DNA from: Pseudomonadota bacterium
GTDB taxonomy: Bacteria; UBA10199; 2-02-FULL-44-16; JBDRGF01
Assembly: GCA_043818055.1 (NCBI GenBank)
Contig: JBDRGF010000093.1
Span: 1-10,379 of the forward strand
Direction: 5' to 3'
Length of the DNA stretch: 10,379 nucleotides
A program made the translations under genes and the position numbers. Within the stretch, counting starts at the first letter, position 1. The number at the start of each line of letters is the position of its first letter. Positions 2,191 to 9,444 of this stretch are shown here, piece by piece. The notes under the pieces were generated by a model. The model was not told the DNA's origin. It did not search any database and saw only the letters and a program-made list of their open reading frames with translations.

Positions 2191-3708
2191 ATGACTGGAG
2201 ACAGATTGAGAAACAATTCCAAACCTCATATTTCAGATCTCAAAGATAATTTTAAAACAATACTGGAGAATATCAATGATGTGGTTTTTCAATTAACCCC
2301 CAAAGGCATCATCAAATACGTGAGTCCAAGAGTTAAAGATGTCTACGGATATGACCCTGATGATCTTATCGGAAAACGTTTTGACGTCACAACTCCTCCA
2401 GAGGACGTGATAAAAGCCAAAGAAGCTCTTAAAAATGTATTGATGGGAATAGAGATAAAAAATTTTGACATCAAACAATATGATCAAAATGGAAATATCA
2501 TCCACATGTCCATAAATTTTACACCGATCATCGATAACGATAAAGTTGTTGCTGTGCAGGGGATAATGAGAGATGTCACCGCTCACAGACATGCAGATGA
2601 AGAGCTGATGAAATTTAAAGCGATCGCTGATAATGCTAATTATGGCGTCGCGATTTCTGATTTGAAAGGAAAACTAACTTATATCAATGAGTATTTTGCG
2701 AATCTACACGGATATAGAGCATCTGAACTGATCGGCAAAAACATTTCAATTTTTCATAGCAAAAAACAGCTATCTTACGTCAATAAAATCAATAAAAGAA
2801 TAAAGGAAGAGGGGAATATTAGCACTGTTGAAGTTTGGCATACACGAAAAAATGGCTACGAATTTCCCATGCTCATGAATGGAATCACCATCAAAGACAA
2901 CGAGGGAAGACCTCAATTCATGGCAGCAACAGCAATCGATATAACCGAAAGAAAATTCGCAGAAGAACAGATTCTAAAAAGCAACCAGGAGTTAAAACGT
3001 CTTAACAAAACGAGGGCTGATTTTACATCCATGATATCACACGAGATGAGAAGCCCTTTAAGCTCAATAAAAGCCGGGGTCTCTATAATTTTAGAAGAAC
3101 TCGACGGGCCCTTAAATCGCTCTCAGAAAGAGACCTTAAATATTGCGGAAAAAAATATCAACAGACTGTCCAATTTGATAAATAACATTCTAGATCTGAC
3201 TAAATTTGAAGCAGGGATGATGAATCTGGATCTCAAAAACAACGACATAAACGAACTGGCAAACAATGTATATTTGTTGATGAGACCTTTGGCTGACCGA
3301 AAAACAATAGAGTTCATACTTGATACACCGACTAAAACCATAAGTGCAATGTGCGATGCGGAAAGATTGAAACAGGTCATGGGAAATCTCATCGATAACG
3401 CGATTAAATTCACTAATAAAGAAGGTAAAATCAGATTGGCAATATCGCAATCACAAGACTGGATCGTCTTAGAAGTAGAAGATAACGGATTGGGAATTAA
3501 GGATGTGGAAAAGGATCTCATTTTTGAAAAGTTCAGGCAGGGATCTCACAAGGAATTAATTAGCGTTACGGGATCGGGATTGGGACTGGCTATTTGCAAA
3601 CAAATCGTTGAAGAGCATAAAGGAAACATCTCGGTTCAAAGCAGATTTGGAAAAGGGAGTAAATTCACAGTCAAGATACCGGCATCAAATCAATGCCATA
3701 CTTCATGA
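2191..3708 (+). CDS. Cytoplasmic sensor histidine kinase with two PAS/PAC domains, HisKA and HATPase_c
   Basis: Two PAS-like segments end in MRDVT and AIDITERK. H-box SMISHEMRSPL, N-box QVMGNLIDNAIKF, G1 VEDNGLGI, F-box IFEKF and G2 GSGLGLAIC are all present. No hydrophobic TM stretch is visible. The gene starts 5 nt after the regulator stop. Confidence 0.95.
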   Translation: MTGDRLRNNSKPHISDLKDNFKTILENINDVVFQLTPKGIIKYVSPRVKDVYGYDPDDLIGKRFDVTTPPEDVIKAKEALKNVLMGIEIKNFDIKQYDQNGNIIHMSINFTPIIDNDKVVAVQGIMRDVTAHRHADEELMKFKAIADNANYGVAISDLKGKLTYINEYFANLHGYRASELIGKNISIFHSKKQLSYVNKINKRIKEEGNISTVEVWHTRKNGYEFPMLMNGITIKDNEGRPQFMAATAIDITERKFAEEQILKSNQELKRLNKTRADFTSMISHEMRSPLSSIKAGVSIILEELDGPLNRSQKETLNIAEKNINRLSNLINNILDLTKFEAGMMNLDLKNNDINELANNVYLLMRPLADRKTIEFILDTPTKTISAMCDAERLKQVMGNLIDNAIKFTNKEGKIRLAISQSQDWIVLEVEDNGLGIKDVEKDLIFEKFRQGSHKELISVTGSGLGLAICKQIVEEHKGNISVQSRFGKGSKFTVKIPASNQCHTS

Positions 3709-4985
3709 TGTTTTCGATCCAGTTTGAGCTTGTCGACATCGAGCTTTTGGCCATCCACATACGTCGACTCGATAACACCACCATGGCCACGATACATGAG
3801 AAGAGATAACACTTCATCGGTATCGAGATCCTTTAGGCGATAGTGGTAATCGATGCCCGTAATATTAAGGACTGCAAAATCGGCGCACTTTCCCTTTTTA
3901 AAATTTCCAACATCATCTTGCATCGATAGAACATGCGCTCCGCCAAGCGTTGCCAGATAGAAAACTTTTTCAGGAGTTACAGAGAATTTATGTTGGATAT
4001 AATCTGCATGTCGCATCTCAGAAAACATCGACATCGAAGTCCCTGCACCTACATCGGTTCCCAAACCATAGATACATCTAGCCTCTTCTATTTTTTCAGC
4101 CGGCATAGTGCCACTCTTCAAAAAGAAATTTGAAGTCGGACAGTGAGCAATTTTAACTTCAGATTTTGACATCCTTTTTATTTCGTCATCGGAGAGATAT
4201 ATCGCGTGCGCCAATATCGTCTTAGCTGTCGCGCAGGAAGTCTCTTCAAAGAGAGAAAAATAATCCTTGAAGGTGGGAAAAAATTCTTTCACCTTATCGT
4301 TTTCCCGCAAGGTCTCGGCGATATGGCTCTGAAGATAAGCACCACTATCCTGTAGCAATTTTCCGATACCTTTCCAAAGATCGATACTACAAGTAGGAGC
4401 AAAACGCGGGGTGAAGGCATACCTCAAACGTCCATTCTCGGCGTTATGCCACTTCGCGCAAAGTTTTTCGCTTAAATTCAAAGAGTCCGAGGTCTTTTCC
4501 TGCAGTTCGGGAGGTGTATCCTGATCCATCATCACCTTGCCGATGATCGCCCTCACTCCCGATTCTTTTGCAATCTCGAAACAACGATCTGTCGCTTCAT
4601 AATGCACCGTGGAATAAAGCGCGGCTGTTGTCGTTCCGTTGAGGATGAGTTTCTTAAAAAAACGTTTTCCCACATCATCAACAACTTTTAAATCTGAGAA
4701 TGACCTCTCTGCGGGAAAGATAAAACGTTTGAGCCATGCAAGCAATGTCGCACCGTGTTTTCCGCGACAATCAAGCTGTGGAATATGCGAATGACAATCG
4801 ATGAGCCCGGGGATGATGAGCCTGTCCTTCAAATCCACGACATCACCCTGAAATCCTGCATCCCATTTTCCAACGGATATGATCTTTCCGTCATCGCCTA
4901 CGATGAGCAATCCATCCTTGATATCCTGAATATCATCCGCATCCAGCGCATGGATGATCCTTGCCCTATATCCCTTAGTCACCAT
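3690..4985 (-). CDS. guaD: Guanine deaminase (amidohydrolase superfamily)
   Basis: Motifs PGLIDCHSHIPQ (HxH metal site), NGTTTA, TPRFAPTCS, QSHIAE, LAHAIYL, AHCPTSNFFLKSG and GLGTDVGAG. The length of 431 aa is typical. Confidence 0.92.
   Translation of the reverse strand: MVTKGYRARIIHALDADDIQDIKDGLLIVGDDGKIISVGKWDAGFQGDVVDLKDRLIIPGLIDCHSHIPQLDCRGKHGATLLAWLKRFIFPAERSFSDLKVVDDVGKRFFKKLILNGTTTAALYSTVHYEATDRCFEIAKESGVRAIIGKVMMDQDTPPELQEKTSDSLNLSEKLCAKWHNAENGRLRYAFTPRFAPTCSIDLWKGIGKLLQDSGAYLQSHIAETLRENDKVKEFFPTFKDYFSLFEETSCATAKTILAHAIYLSDDEIKRMSKSEVKIAHCPTSNFFLKSGTMPAEKIEEARCIYGLGTDVGAGTSMSMFSEMRHADYIQHKFSVTPEKVFYLATLGGAHVLSMQDDVGNFKKGKCADFAVLNITGIDYHYRLKDLDTDEVLSLLMYRGHGGVIESTYVDGQKLDVDKLKLDRKHHEVWH
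4921..4967. repeat. 47-bp direct repeat, copy 1 (within the 5' coding end of guaD)
   Basis: ATATCCTGAATATCATCCGCATCCAGCGCATGGATGATCCTTGCCCT is 44/47 identical to 5859-5905, with a 24-bp identical core at 4932-4955. Confidence 0.95.
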
Positions 4986-4987
4986 TC

Positions 4988-5833
4988 TTATCCCTTGATT
5001 TTTTTCTGTTCAGGCTTTTGCGGAAGAAAGTTTTTGGAAGTCACAACCTTGCTTCCCGTTTCAATTTCAAGTTTTTCTCTGGCATTGCCCGCTATATTGC
5101 CACCAGTTTGTGCGGCATATTTGTTTTCTTCAAAACCTTGAGCATTTTTCTTTCTGGTGATCTCTGTCGTTGATGCCTCACCAAGCATCGAAAAAATAAG
5201 TTCCAAGTCCGTCATATGATCGCGAAGGTTTTCACGTTCCAACCCTTTAAGTTCTTTATATTGACTTGGTGTCATGCCAAAAGTTGCTTTTGATATTTCA
5301 GCCGTTAATATTGAATATTCCTTTTGTTCTTCAATTCCTCGTTTTTGCCATTCATCTGTTAATTCTTCACGAACGGCAATGCCGCGCATTCTTTTTTCTA
5401 TCCAGACATCAGGATAACCTTTTGCCTTGTAGATCGTTTTTGTGCGCTTTGTGGCAATTTCGGGGTCTTCTATTTCTTGTATGCGTTCATATCCAACGCG
5501 AGCCAGCCATCGTTTGAATGGTTCTGCTTTTGGCGATGGAATAGATTGGATTATGCGAAACATCGTTTCAGTACTTGCCATGTCGGTTTCACGCAATTTG
5601 CCGTCTTGAGCTTCGATTTTCAACTGTACGATTTTTCCGTACAGTTCAAAAAAACCTTCTTTTTCAGTTACTTGCCGTTTTAAATCCGACCAATAACGAC
5701 GCGGGTTATTACTGTCTGTCAAAACTTCTATCACATCAATAACCGAAAAATGCCATTCATTATTGTGTAATATTCGGCGGATCTGTTTGCCTTGAAAAAC
5801 GGCTAATTTGGGATGTTCCAATTCTTTTTTCAT
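4988..5833 (-). CDS. Bro-N domain-containing protein (phage antirepressor-like; C-terminus reminiscent of DinD-type proteins)
   Basis: N-terminal Bro-N pattern FQGKQIRR..NNEWHFSVIDVIEVLT..PRRYWSDLK, then RIIQSIPSPKAEPFKRWLA and a C-terminal ENLRDHMTDLELIF motif. The family was recognised by eye, not by HMM. Confidence 0.85.
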   Translation of the reverse strand: MKKELEHPKLAVFQGKQIRRILHNNEWHFSVIDVIEVLTDSNNPRRYWSDLKRQVTEKEGFFELYGKIVQLKIEAQDGKLRETDMASTETMFRIIQSIPSPKAEPFKRWLARVGYERIQEIEDPEIATKRTKTIYKAKGYPDVWIEKRMRGIAVREELTDEWQKRGIEEQKEYSILTAEISKATFGMTPSQYKELKGLERENLRDHMTDLELIFSMLGEASTTEITRKKNAQGFEENKYAAQTGGNIAGNAREKLEIETGSKVVTSKNFLPQKPEQKKIKG

Positions 5834-5836
5834 AAA

Positions 5837-5929
5837 TTATTTTCTTTCATAGTCATCTATATCCTGAACATCATCCGCATCCAGCGCATGGATAATCCTC
5901 GCCCTGAAACCGACATGATTACTCGTCAT
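5837..5929 (-). pseudogene. 30-aa truncated duplicate of the guaD 5' end (stub)
   Basis: Translates to [30 protein letters not shown], versus the GuaD start MVTKGYRARIIHALDADDIQDIKDG. Its ATG overlaps the last codons of yacG and its TAA lies 3 nt before the Bro-N ATG. It is not in the supplied ORF track. Confidence 0.85.
5859..5905. repeat. 47-bp direct repeat, copy 2 (within the guaD stub)
   Basis: ATATCCTGAACATCATCCGCATCCAGCGCATGGATAATCCTCGCCCT lies 938 bp from copy 1, with the identical core at 5870-5893. Confidence 0.95.
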
Positions 5930-6110
5930 TTTTTTCCTCGTTCGTTTCAGAGAATCTCTCCTGAGTCGGAATTTTGTATTCCTCGGAGGCCCAACTTCCC
6001 AGATCGATTAACTTGCACCTCTGGGAACAAAAGGGACGATATGAATTGTCCTTCCACGCAGCTTTTTTTCCGCATTTCGGACAGCCGACATATTTGAATT
6101 CATTCTCCAT
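5919..6110 (-). CDS. yacG: DNA gyrase inhibitor YacG (zinc finger)
   Basis: 63 aa with CPKCGK...[25 protein letters not shown], the canonical YacG CxxC...FCSxRC..DLG.W pattern. Confidence 0.95.
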
Positions 6111-6119
6111 GATTTTCAG

Positions 6120-6147
6120 ACTATAGATATCCGGAATTTGAAATCAA
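6120..6147 (-). promoter_or_regulatory. Putative sigma-70 promoter for yacG and downstream genes
   Basis: On the - strand: TTGATT (6147-6142), a 16-nt spacer, TATAGT (6125-6120), then 9 nt to the yacG ATG. Confidence 0.55.
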
Positions 6148-6170
6148 GACAAAAGAAATTTTATGGATGT

Positions 6171-6230
6171 TGTAGGGGCTGCCCCCTGCGGCCGCCCTTC
6201 TGAAGGGCAACCACGGGGGGTTGCCCCTAC
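6171..6230. repeat. GTAG-family REP doublet (REPIN/BIME-like) overlapping the stop codon of the Pal-like gene
   Basis: TGTAGGGGCTGCCCCCTGCGGCCGCCC-TTCTGAA-GGGCAACCACGGGGGGTTGCCCCTAC consists of two inverted GTAGGGGC-type units. It is homologous to 696-751. Confidence 0.85.
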
Positions 6231-6697
6231 CTTGGAACAAGCTCAACCCTTCTGTTTTTCCTCCATGCCTCTGGAGTATTGCGAACATCAGCGGGCTTTG
6301 TCTCTCCGTAAGAGATGACGGCGGCGATTCTATCCTTTGAAACACCTTTGGACAAGAGGTAAGCCCTTACACTGCGAGCACGTCTGTCTCCCAGCTCCTT
6401 ATTATAAGCCTCTGAACCTCTATTGTCACAATGGCCTTCCAGGACGAGTGCTACGTCACGATTTTGAGCAAGCCATCTCACATCCTGATCGAGGACACTG
6501 GCAGATGAGGGAAGGATTCCGACCGAGTTAGTCGCAAAATAGACGGTGCTTATAAGTTTCAAGCCCTCTTCCTTTGCTACCCGCTCATCTTCGGCCGCCC
6601 TTTTACTGGCAACTCGCGAAAAAACACATCCTGCAACAAGCGAGACGCTACAGATGATTAAGAAAAGCACGATCCATTTGTTCTCTTTGAGTTTCAC
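6227..6697 (-). CDS. Pal-like OmpA-family peptidoglycan-binding lipoprotein
   Basis: GTG start with AGGAGG at 6709-6704. A hydrophobic signal ends in the lipobox VAGC (Cys24). OmpA_C/Pal motifs are VYF, EGHCDNRGSEAYNKELGDRRA, ISYGETKP and AWRKNRRVE. Confidence 0.9.
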   Translation of the reverse strand: MKLKENKWIVLFLIICSVSLVAGCVFSRVASKRAAEDERVAKEEGLKLISTVYFATNSVGILPSSASVLDQDVRWLAQNRDVALVLEGHCDNRGSEAYNKELGDRRARSVRAYLLSKGVSKDRIAAVISYGETKPADVRNTPEAWRKNRRVELVPR

Positions 6698-6734
6698 AGT
6701 TGTCCTCCTAAAAACAGCATGTAGTAGTATTATT

Positions 6735-6762
6735 GTAGGGGCGGTTCGCGAACCGCCCCTAC
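6735..6762. repeat. Perfect 28-bp palindrome, GTAG-family REP
   Basis: GTAGGGGCGGTTCG-CGAACCGCCCCTAC is an exact inverted repeat with the same GTAGGGGC ends as the doublets. Confidence 0.88.
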
Positions 6763-6792: not shown

Positions 6793-9324
6793 TTACTCTT
6801 CAAACACGCCGATATCAATAGTCCCACGTGTAACAAAATTATAATCCTTCAGCACCTGTCCATCCGCAGGCGTTGGAGCGGCATAACCATCGTTGATACC
6901 ATCATTTCCTGAGCCATCGGATTGTAAATGATACTGATCGTTGATCATGGTTGTGTATGTATTATGCCTTCTCACAACATTACCGCTAACCGTTGATTTG
7001 CCAAATGTAAATCCTATTGTCGTATAGGGACTTCCATCACAGCCACGGACTAATATTTGGGATGTTGAATCAGGGGACTGCAAAAAGAGATTATTCCTAA
7101 CATGATTCGTCGGCTCGCTTGTTGCGCAACTCAGCGGTATGCCATCTCCACCGCCAAAGGTCGCGAAGACATTGTTCACCAGCACCGGATCAGATGCATC
7201 GACGATCAGCCCCTCCAACACACCAACGCCTTTGGATGACGAAGCTTTGAGGGTGTTATTTGCGACAACCAGATCGGTCTTTGATTTGTAAAGTTTAAGG
7301 GCTGCCTGCGAATATGCGCTGCCAGCATCTATAATATTATTCACAACCGTACCCTTGGTAAGGTTAGCAAGATATGCGCCCTGACTGAATGTTCCGGCAT
7401 CTGTCGTATGACTGCCGCCGATGAATTTATTTGCTGAAAGAACGAGTTCCATCGCGCCGTCTGCCCAGAAAGCCGTAGTCTGTAACAGAGTCGCATTCCC
7501 CTTCACCGTGCAATTTTTGAACGTCTTTGCACCTGTGCCCTGCAAGAGCACCGTCTTTTGACCATCAATTGATGAAGTTGAGTTCGCAGTATTTTCGATA
7601 TGGAAACCGTCGAATAAAACATCATCGAGCGAGCCGATGAGAAGTGTCACGTCGGAATCGGATCTTGTTAATGTCGTCCTATAAGTTGCACCTGTGTCTC
7701 GATAATCGCGCGTTGTAAAAGCCGAATTGAATCCTCCAAACATGTGCACTCCTGCCTGCCATGTGATGCCGCTCATATCATAATTCCCTGCCGCTACTAC
7801 GAGTGAAACGCCGTTCGTCTTTGCCTTCGTCAAACCTGCGGCGAAGGTCTTTAGAGGTGAACTCTTTGTACCTCTTGCGCTGTCTGAACCTGCTGCCTGC
7901 TCGACAAATACCGCAAACTGTTCATTCTGGGCCATGTTGTCTGCACCGAACGTCGCCCAGATCGTCATGCCTATCGATTCATCCTTATCGTCGAGATCAC
8001 AATCCTTTGCAATTCCATCTATATCTTCATCCGTCGCTGATTGACCTACATTCGACACATACGGACAATTATCCGTTGAGTTTAGTACAGCATCTCCATC
8101 GATATCATCATCGCAAACATCGCCAAATCCGTTTGAATCAACATCAGACTGAAATGCGTTTGCTTTAAGATTACAGTTATCATCACAATTAGCTTTCGCA
8201 CCGCCTATGCAGGTGGCATCTCCAACCACTCCACTGCTATCACCATCATCCAGTATGCCATCGTTGTCGGCATCCGGATCACAAACATCGCCTATCTTAT
8301 CACCATCGACATCCCCCTGCGGAAGGTTCGCATTGATCGGGCAGTTATCGAGATTGTCATTTATAGTATCGGCGTCTGAATCGACCAAGAGCGGATTATA
8401 ACCTCTCGTGACCTCCCAGCCATCTCCCAGACCGTCGCCATCGGTGTCGGCCTTCATCGGATCTGTCCCGCGATTCGCCTCATCCGTGTTGTTCAAACCA
8501 TCGCCATCCGGGTCATCCGAGCAGATATCTCCCACGCCATCCTTGTCCTGATCGGCCTGATCGGAGTTTGCAGTTGATGGGCAGTTGTCCTTCCCGTCAT
8601 TCAATCCGTCGCCATCACTGTCTGCATTTCTGGGATCGGTATTCTGCAAGGTTTCCGCATCGTTCTTTACACCATCACCATCGATATCATCATCCTGATT
8701 GTCGCCGATGCCGTCTCCATCCATATCTTCCCACTCCGTTGCCAACATGGGAAAGAGGTCGAGCCCATCCTGCACACCGTCGCCATCACTATCAACATTT
8801 GCAGGATCGCAACCGTTCTCTATCTCAGAGATGTTGAACATCTTATCTGCATCTGAATCTATATTGTAATCATAAGTCCCCGCTGTGAGATCCTGACCCG
8901 CGACATACGGCACATACTGTCCGGCAATCTGCAGATCTCCCTCTGAAATCGCACCTGCCTCCTTCGACTGCGTCGTCGTGGAGGATGTAGCACGATACCA
9001 GACCTCTATCTTTAAATAGACATTTGCCGCCGGCACATCGGACGAAGGCTCGAATGAAAATTGATATTTGTCATCCTTATATTCGCCAACAAGGCGCGAA
9101 GAGAGCTCTTCATCACCTGCCGGATCCAAATCTGATGCCTTTGCGGTACCTGTGCTATTCACAACTAGCTTTCCGGCAACAATAGCCTCGCCGCTCAGAT
9201 CGGTAATGCGCTTTGGAAAAGCAGGGGCGACTTTCACATCAAGCTTGCCGCTGCCTCCACCGCCACACCCGACCAGTGCGGTCATCACAAAACCTAAAAC
9301 CAACATTCCAATTAGACGCTTCAT
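6793..9324 (-). CDS. Large surface lipoprotein with thrombospondin type-3 Ca-binding repeats and a DUF1565-like/right-handed beta-helix C-terminal region (843 aa from the corrected start)
   Basis: ATG at 9324 is preceded by GGAGG (9335-9331). The signal peptide is MKRLIGMLVLGFVMTALVG-C followed by a Gly-rich linker. Many DxDxDG and DNCP..N.DQ.D.D.DG.GD.C repeats follow. VFVEQAAGSDSARGTKSSPLKT resembles DUF1565, VVNNII/VANNTL/LVNNVF look like beta-helix strands, and the protein ends in DIGVFE. Confidence 0.88.
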   Translation of the reverse strand: MKRLIGMLVLGFVMTALVGCGGGGSGKLDVKVAPAFPKRITDLSGEAIVAGKLVVNSTGTAKASDLDPAGDEELSSRLVGEYKDDKYQFSFEPSSDVPAANVYLKIEVWYRATSSTTTQSKEAGAISEGDLQIAGQYVPYVAGQDLTAGTYDYNIDSDADKMFNISEIENGCDPANVDSDGDGVQDGLDLFPMLATEWEDMDGDGIGDNQDDDIDGDGVKNDAETLQNTDPRNADSDGDGLNDGKDNCPSTANSDQADQDKDGVGDICSDDPDGDGLNNTDEANRGTDPMKADTDGDGLGDGWEVTRGYNPLLVDSDADTINDNLDNCPINANLPQGDVDGDKIGDVCDPDADNDGILDDGDSSGVVGDATCIGGAKANCDDNCNLKANAFQSDVDSNGFGDVCDDDIDGDAVLNSTDNCPYVSNVGQSATDEDIDGIAKDCDLDDKDESIGMTIWATFGADNMAQNEQFAVFVEQAAGSDSARGTKSSPLKTFAAGLTKAKTNGVSLVVAAGNYDMSGITWQAGVHMFGGFNSAFTTRDYRDTGATYRTTLTRSDSDVTLLIGSLDDVLFDGFHIENTANSTSSIDGQKTVLLQGTGAKTFKNCTVKGNATLLQTTAFWADGAMELVLSANKFIGGSHTTDAGTFSQGAYLANLTKGTVVNNIIDAGSAYSQAALKLYKSKTDLVVANNTLKASSSKGVGVLEGLIVDASDPVLVNNVFATFGGGDGIPLSCATSEPTNHVRNNLFLQSPDSTSQILVRGCDGSPYTTIGFTFGKSTVSGNVVRRHNTYTTMINDQYHLQSDGSGNDGINDGYAAPTPADGQVLKDYNFVTRGTIDIGVFEE

Positions 9325-9416
9325 ATAAATCCTCCCTTGATCTCTCCCTCGCGCAAAATTTTTTATAAAAATGGGTAATTTCTTCATATTTTTTTCATGT
9401 TTTAAGTTTTTCACCA

Positions 9417-9444
9417 CATACTACATGCCACATGCTACATACGC
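9417..9444. repeat. Heptamer tandem repeat, 4 degenerate units
   Basis: CATACTA CATGCCA CATGCTA CATACGC lies in the intergenic region between the PEGA gene and the TSP3 lipoprotein gene. Confidence 0.7.

Follow-up and report, generated by a model that had tools for sequence, protein, structure and literature searches.

Long target duplication is a mode of gene insertion that was reportedly first described in a paper cited by a later study, Furuta 2010. In the sections drawn on here, that study documents the mode for restriction genes inserted without an integrase, in cases with repeats longer than 30 bp, an insert shorter than 20 kb without another mobile element, and an empty site in a relative; its examples have 45–47-bp repeats with 44/46 identity, often across a start or stop site and with the target left intact, and include single-gene mcrA (PMC2853133). 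For integrase-free gene turnover, the parts of Oliveira 2017 used here propose double recombination at flanking core genes (PMC5635113), and homology-facilitated illegitimate recombination is discussed in passages of PMC5361080 and PMC2884548. Here we analyze a 10,379-nucleotide stretch of Pseudomonadota DNA (the window, one whole metagenome-assembled contig) in which a gene for a Bro-N protein (bro) lies between an intact guanine deaminase gene (guaD) and a stub of the guaD 5′ end. The insertion is real and of a type already known; its class of cargo is one that we did not find in print for that mode, and an empty and a second filled allele document it unusually well. We consider it fairly likely that a recombinase-free insertion with long target duplication placed bro at the guaD 5′ end and that the host's homologous recombination later spread it; the locus is probably a footprint of host recombination rather than a new mobile element.

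The features of the locus are given below in window coordinates; X4 and X5 are sequencing runs with contigs from congeners, the former carrying an empty site.

3690–4985, minus strand: intact guaD (guanine deaminase), start MVTKGY, TIGR02967 over its cut-off
4988–5833, minus strand: bro, encoding 281 aa with a Bro-N domain and, at the C terminus, a helical domain (PF02498, PDC-S13, phrog_15286)
5840–5929, minus strand: guaD stub of 30 codons, its ATG overlapping the last yacG codons; codons 1–14 match the empty-site allele at its start
5919–6110, minus strand: yacG (DNA gyrase inhibitor gene), conserved upstream neighbor of guaD, PF03884 over its cut-off
5859–5905, minus strand: upstream repeat copy, 47 bp (RARIIHALDADDVQD), with a likely recombination joint at about 5888, directly past RARIIH
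4921–4967, minus strand: downstream repeat copy, 47 bp, within intact guaD, from the repeat comparison
4968–4985, minus strand: working guaD start (MVTKGY), beginning 2 nt past the bro stop
5834–5858, minus strand: non-guaD tail closing the stub, which the X5 congener contig follows too, and the 6-nt gap from the stub stop to the bro ATG
4836–5887, no strand: probable exchanged tract, 1,052 bp where the empty-site contig has 114 bases that do not align (a net 938; joint 4835–5888 in run X4)

A sequence-only reading of the window had pointed to 47-bp repeats around bro, a guaD stub and an intact guaD with another start, and all of these were borne out. The two repeat copies are 44/47 identical at a spacing of 938 bp, compared to best 47-nt matches of 27–30/47 in 20/20 dinucleotide shuffles of window 4401–6400, and the 2.93-Mb genome holds this pair and no third copy. 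Two of the three mismatches are synonymous and one exchanges V and I; the copies stand in the same codon register, so excision would keep guaD in frame. Only about 25 and 20 nt of the unit lie outside bro, whose GC content at third codon positions is 0.33; guaD, yacG and pal have 0.45–0.52, but the window's histidine kinase gene, at 0.39, is low as well. KGY starts are found in other GuaD proteins as well. One purine-rich 8-mer (window 4969–4996) is present twice, first overlapping where bro ends and then, 20 nt further on, within the KGY codons of guaD; the recurrence may be fortuitous or left over from the original joint.

Consistent with the claim that the unit encodes no mobility enzyme, a Pfam scan of 9 window proteins detected neither integrase nor transposase, and none of the 7 PF00589 matches in the genome falls on the contig of the window. 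The 25 longest of 36 repeat pairs include no inverted repeat at either end of the unit. Between yacG and bro there were no promoter-like sites in a scan that performed at chance level (3 found versus 2.5 expected), which makes the yacG transcript the probable source of bro expression; presumably lacking a promoter of its own, bro would be expressed within a yacG–stub–bro–guaD run via the tight stop-start spacing. RNA run X4 contains a bro fragment identical to the window, a contig from an RNA library being no proof of transcription.

The repeats could have been created by an assembly chimera of two strains, given that the window is a metagenome-assembled contig, but we found identical contigs across the junctions. 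The guaD-repeat-bro junction is covered without differences by contigs from runs X1 (4887–5474), X2 (4864–5270) and X3 (4843–5219), the bro-into-stub junction by X3 (5668–5891), and the stub-into-yacG junction by X1 (5877–6051); two studies produced these runs, one of them perhaps the source of the assembly itself, and the unit is not spanned end to end by any one piece. Runs X6 and X7 do not cover the junction. With both junctions covered by identical, overlapping contigs of two studies, and the stub and its tail present in a contig from a third study (X5), a chimera is scarcely credible.

We then compared the locus with that of relatives in the same order and class. In 16/21 relatives (loci L002–L022 with a guaD 5′ end), yacG lies directly upstream of guaD, in agreement with the proposal that this adjacency is ancestral. 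The distance from YacG residue 47 to GuaD residue 7 is 62–133 bp in those 16 relatives, compared to 1,005 bp in the window and 67 bp in the window without the unit. The remaining 5/21 have small genes between yacG and guaD (L014, L021), yacG downstream of guaD (L022), or no yacG in the stretch fetched (L012, L013), and none of the 21 carries a large element at the site. There were no same-family genomes among 40 relatives, a metagenome scan with GuaD residues 7–90 returned only 4 distant loci (38–61%) and no close empty site, and GuaD, Bro-N and YacG are singletons in 90% clusters.

An empty site was found in a 468-nt contig from run X4, which aligns to window 4591–4835 (26 differences in 245) and 5888–5995 (11 in 108) and holds 114 letters where the window has 1,052, a net difference of exactly 938. 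This allele is at least 43/45 identical to the stub start, through RARIIH, but its next 30 letters (SLNPSQVEDI) match each window copy at only 18/30, compared to 28/29 between the two window copies over that stretch (both hand counts); within the repeat, the match of this allele, which is from another species, stops after 18 bases. Judged from this alignment, the contig is a true empty site and not an excision product, since it matches neither copy past RARIIH, and it provides the relative predicted by the earlier reading, with guaD starting MTSNHVGF. Three further points of that reading stand in part. Excision that regenerates an in-frame guaD is compatible with the shared codon register, but the X4 allele is not such a product and we saw neither a 938-bp circle nor a precise excision junction. 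The clean 938-bp unit holds as a net difference, but the differing tract is about 1,052 bp and replaces 114 bp. Two diverged guaD alleles are seen only at the start codons; the window copies are of one allele type for most of the repeat's length, with the first 14 codons of the stub being of the empty-site type. The stub looks recombinant on these comparisons, and the exchanged tract is probably about 1,050 bp.

A contig from run X5, of a further study, represents a second filled allele. It is 88% identical overall to the window (27 differences in 223) and runs through ALDADD and the non-guaD tail as far as 5834, with a stop at codon 15; its listed differences include one in 5864–5885 and four in RARII, all synonymous in the guaD frame, and it has nine listed yacG-side alleles in common with the X4 contigs. 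Retention of the tail, with a single listed difference in 5864–5885 at 88% identity overall, argues for insertion followed by homologous recombination, as does the net-938-bp empty site whose allele shares the stub start and not the next 30 bases.

Under the favored account, bro would have been inserted at the guaD 5′ end together with a second copy of the guaD start, the duplication having arisen in an ALDADD-type allele. Because guaD sequence lies on both sides of the cassette, entry by two crossovers is possible: in a second step the cassette would enter a relative's plain yacG-guaD locus by crossovers in the conserved RARIIH codons and near codon 51, fusing the resident start to the cassette's ALDADD copy. 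Homology-assisted recombination, one of the routes named in the earlier reading, is supported as likely, and the presence of recA and comEC in the genome fits this account. So do published precedents, in the sections cited above, for the same mode in restriction genes (PMC2853133) and for double recombination at core genes (PMC5635113).

The same alignments bear on a one-step displacement, in which foreign DNA brought in bro with a guaD start of its own attached; homology in the guaD body would have anchored this DNA, and an illegitimate join just beyond the resident start would have completed the exchange. The entire stub would then be the resident allele, the repeat would be a pair of close alleles, much as the sequence-only reading had it, and the X4 allele would be a separate change in the X4 lineage. 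Such a mechanism has been proposed for displaced gene ends in type VI secretion system (T6SS) and rhs arrays, where the passages used here describe the process as orders of magnitude rarer than plain homologous recombination (PMC5361080). The GuaD protein P0004 (start MGIKGY), the one most like the first 50 residues of the window GuaD, suggests that the ALDADD type is old in the lineage, as this displacement would have it. However, the only empty allele seen lacks ALDADD, and the donor would have to be 28/29 identical in a hypervariable stretch while having an unrelated start. We regard one-step displacement as unlikely. P0004 was also considered as a proxy for a donor, since its residues 13–50 have 0.68 identity to the window protein, 3.7 SD above trend; we dropped it as such on account of the GuaD body tree (support 0.98, 44 sequences), where it and the window protein are sisters.

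Several observations weigh against insertion followed by spread through homologous recombination. The empty (X4) and second filled (X5) alleles are single low-depth contigs, at depths of 6.3 and 3.9, from other species that are about 88–90% identical; 30 of the 114 unaligned X4 letters are shown, X5 is seen to 5834 only, and 6 of its 27 differences are unplaced and could fall in the tail. GuaD residues 13–50 vary widely, at 0.53–1.0 identity in most pairs that are 85–91% identical in the body. As P0004 is a sister in the body tree, it gives no proof of a foreign donor, and the direction of transfer is not settled. In addition, dprA was not found in the genome (94% complete), and about 90% of the Bro-N loci surveyed below have no repeat.

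To place the locus among its homologs, we surveyed 80 Bro-N loci from many phyla, of which 78 had usable flanks, for bracketing direct repeats scoring at least 50. Such repeats occurred at 8/78 Bro-N loci versus 1/124 shifted controls, although one of the 8 (L109) is a repeat family that is also the control match. The copied sequence is a neighbor's 5′ end at L079 and L105, a neighbor's 3′ end at L072, L075, L051 and L089, and a terminator-like hairpin at L078. Other Bro-N genes with the same footprint, for which the sequence-only reading had suggested looking, thus exist, and the repeats at the 8 loci are unrelated sequences of 39–220 bp with no conserved attachment sequence.

In a matched test within the phylum of the window, using up to 30 loci per family with short-flank loci dropped and copy number unchecked outside the window's own genome, bracketing repeats were found at 3/29 Bro loci (window locus included), 3/27 RhuM loci, 3/28 DUF4143 loci and 3/27 ORF6N loci, compared to 0/37 housekeeping controls (0/17 radA and 0/20 guaD). 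Bro-N loci overall did not differ from RhuM, DUF4143 and ORF6N combined (10/106 versus 9/82, Fisher p=0.81, pooling two Bro sets that share a few loci and with kin not independent). This equal rate in four accessory families, with none in 37 housekeeping loci, supports the favored account. A dedicated Bro-N cassette element, as first proposed, was not upheld, since the footprint is no commoner around Bro-N than around the three other accessory families. Bro-specific mobility was likewise rejected, as Bro-N showed no enrichment of repeats over RhuM, DUF4143 and ORF6N in the matched test. At two loci, L261 (Bro-N) and L257 (ORF6N), the repeat is the cargo gene's own 3′ end, left upstream of an intact copy.

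Within the window's own genome, we scored 900 crude open reading frames (ORFs) of 200–400 aa with the same threshold. Only 15/900 reached it, mostly through multi-copy repeats, and the only 3 two-copy cases were the window locus and two tandem paralogs. Self-comparison of the genome yielded 157 direct-repeat pairs 250–4,000 bp apart, 23 of them two-copy and not within one ORF, about half of these being tandem paralogs. Among the others are twins of the window locus with unrelated cargo, which argue for the favored account (the gene names radA, miaA, hsdM and dinD are our reading of domain matches). At radA (contig C37, 16669–17506, L137), a 95-bp, 85% repeat comprises a 5′ stub with a stop, followed by a 158-aa opposite-strand cargo gene and then intact radA. 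At miaA (C163, 469–2282, L144), the 3′ end is duplicated (101 bp, 94%) around a 465-aa gene. Neither cargo protein had a Pfam or PADLOC match. The radA repeat takes in diverged upstream sequence and the displaced miaA copy retains an alternative C-terminal tail, and these diverged ends outside a high-identity core speak for one-step displacement. Among 19 relatives, none has the cargo or stub of the radA twin, and the radA neighbors are too variable to define an empty site. A type IIG/ISP restriction-modification gene (C48, 1703–5493, L138) lies between 66-bp, 97% repeats of hairpin-like intergenic sequence and is a textbook long target duplication. An AAA_14/DUF4143 gene is bracketed by 50-bp, 96% repeats, a RhuM gene after hsdM has a 96-bp, 74% repeat, and 1/4 bro paralogs has its own bracket (47 bp, 81%).

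Other repeats of this genome merit mention in their own right. On C77 (L147) and C16 (L146), Bro-N, DinD-like and other small genes are each bracketed by copies of neighbor ends (27, 16, 54 and 57 bp), and these gene runs suggest serial insertions. A 390-bp, 90% repeat of an Rhs-type core end lies at C3, 23978–25758, with displaced C-terminal modules behind a 4,124-aa gene. Repeats on C128 and C146, short contigs with deviating gene content that may be binning contamination, were not relied on.

We next considered the Bro-N protein itself. It exceeds the PF02498 cut-off (43.4 bits versus 25.6), matches phrog_15286, and matches the PADLOC profile PDC-S13 along its full length (residues 7–278, E=2.5e-120). 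PDC-S13 paralogs and homologs are found in type I restriction and cas loci, whereas the window copy sits in a housekeeping operon, and the protein is a putative anti-phage candidate predicted from these profile matches. Payne et al. present 145 PDC systems as predictions, with S13 unnamed in the main text (bioRxiv 10.1101/2024.01.29.577857); our literature search, outside of which lay the supplementary tables of that paper, which may describe S13, found no paper naming PDC-S13. Gene names read from translations place one homolog between cas4 and cas1 (L120) and another directly before cas1 in a type I-E locus (L125), and at L075 two Bro-N genes flank one DUF2130-like gene.

An AlphaFold model of the protein is largely helical (predicted local distance difference test score of 86), and its best structural match in both searches, well above the next rows, is full-length Deinococcus radiodurans DdrC (PDB 7QVB, 8U0G; Foldseek E=5e-6; VIA Z 11.7 with 191 aligned residues and a root-mean-square deviation of 12.9). 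The match has weak points, namely 12–16% identity and a deviation of about 13–15 Å. KilA-N/Dachshund-type DNA-binding domains and helical bundles make up the other leading matches; the structure searches brought up no conspicuous recombinase or nuclease, and the Bro-N alignment had no sequence relatives in the PDB. DdrC binds breaks in pairs and circularizes linear DNA, according to the portion of PMC11347143 used here, and DdrC-like break binding would be a putative activity of the Bro-N protein. We found no paper linking DdrC with Bro-N. The protein might aid its own movement by holding two nicks or ends together in the manner of DdrC; linear DNA would be circularized on entry, or widely staggered nicks fixed in place, with long target duplications as the outcome, also in trans for other cargo. 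The full-length fold match, the pairing of breaks by DdrC and the 5 Bro-N paralogs in the genome would fit such a role. Against it stand the low identity and high deviation of that match, the lack of repeat enrichment over the other three families, and the distribution of the footprint, which is found across the phylum although only 31/93 genomes searched have a close Bro-N match; we hold this role to be quite improbable. The broader idea that small defense-type genes are widespread recombinase-free cassettes, each with a spare housekeeping gene end and entering relatives via short conserved motifs, with a DdrC-like Bro-N protein making the duplications, strikes us as highly doubtful.

The closest Bro-N homolog (80–81% aa) lies on DNA (L031 = L116 = L169) that is also in a viral collection, so phages may carry the gene between hosts. 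Together with the PHROG assignment, this could mark the unit as the remnant of a prophage or integrative element with a 47-bp attachment core in the guaD 5′ end and a replacement start supplied. However, there is no integrase remnant, little of the unit lies outside bro, no relative has a large element at the site, and the repeats at homologous loci share no sequence or length, all of which make a remnant very improbable.

The rest of the window includes repetitive extragenic palindromic (REP)-like repeats at 701–752, 6170–6230 and 6729–6762, with the core GTAGGGGC...GCCCCTAC and dozens of genome copies. A Pal-like OmpA gene (6227–6697) has close paralogs on contigs C10 and C145 (81% and 88%) and is preceded by a gene for an 874-aa thrombospondin type 3 repeat lipoprotein (6793–9417).

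These results take an insertion mode on record chiefly for restriction-modification genes and extend it to small accessory genes generally, and give its footprint a rate in an uncultured phylum of about 1/10 accessory loci versus 0/37 housekeeping loci. The window, X5 and X4 form a rare natural trio, of which the first two are filled (X5 in a congener) and the third, in another congener, is empty; the trio suggests how such a cassette could spread without a mobility enzyme while target gene and operon stay intact. If a DdrC-like protein did cause the duplications, it would offer a testable handle on long target duplication, but the matched comparison argues against this.

Set against known systems, the locus departs from integrative elements (prophages, integrative and conjugative elements, integrative mobilizable elements) in having no integrase in the unit or contig and no conserved attachment sequence, and from insertion sequences and miniature inverted-repeat transposable elements in having no terminal inverted repeats among the pairs shown and no transposase match. 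The Bro-N protein may resemble DdrC in a predicted two-domain fold matched along its whole length, whereas DdrC is a chromosomal repair factor with 12–16% identity and no sequence match to it. As in T6SS/rhs displacement (PMC5361080), a displaced gene end lies beside incoming DNA that supplies a new end, but here it is a housekeeping gene that has had its 5′ end displaced, outside any array. The model of PMC5635113 is matched by an accessory gene between conserved neighbors, without an integrase and with a mosaic flanking gene; in contrast to that model, both arms can fall in the guaD 5′ end, owing to the duplication, and the exchange would be across species about 88–90% identical, and unlike its hotspots only 2/21 relatives have other genes between yacG and guaD. 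Our literature search brought up no paper that reports target duplications at Bro-N genes. The mode of Furuta 2010 is paralleled by a 938-bp unit of one gene without a mobility gene, a 47-bp repeat, an intact target and an empty site. The window differs from it in that the cargo is Bro-N/PDC-S13 with no restriction or methylase domain, and is not a restriction-modification unit, and in that the start codon lies outside the repeat; its empty allele, matching only the first 18 repeat bases, points to later spread by recombination.

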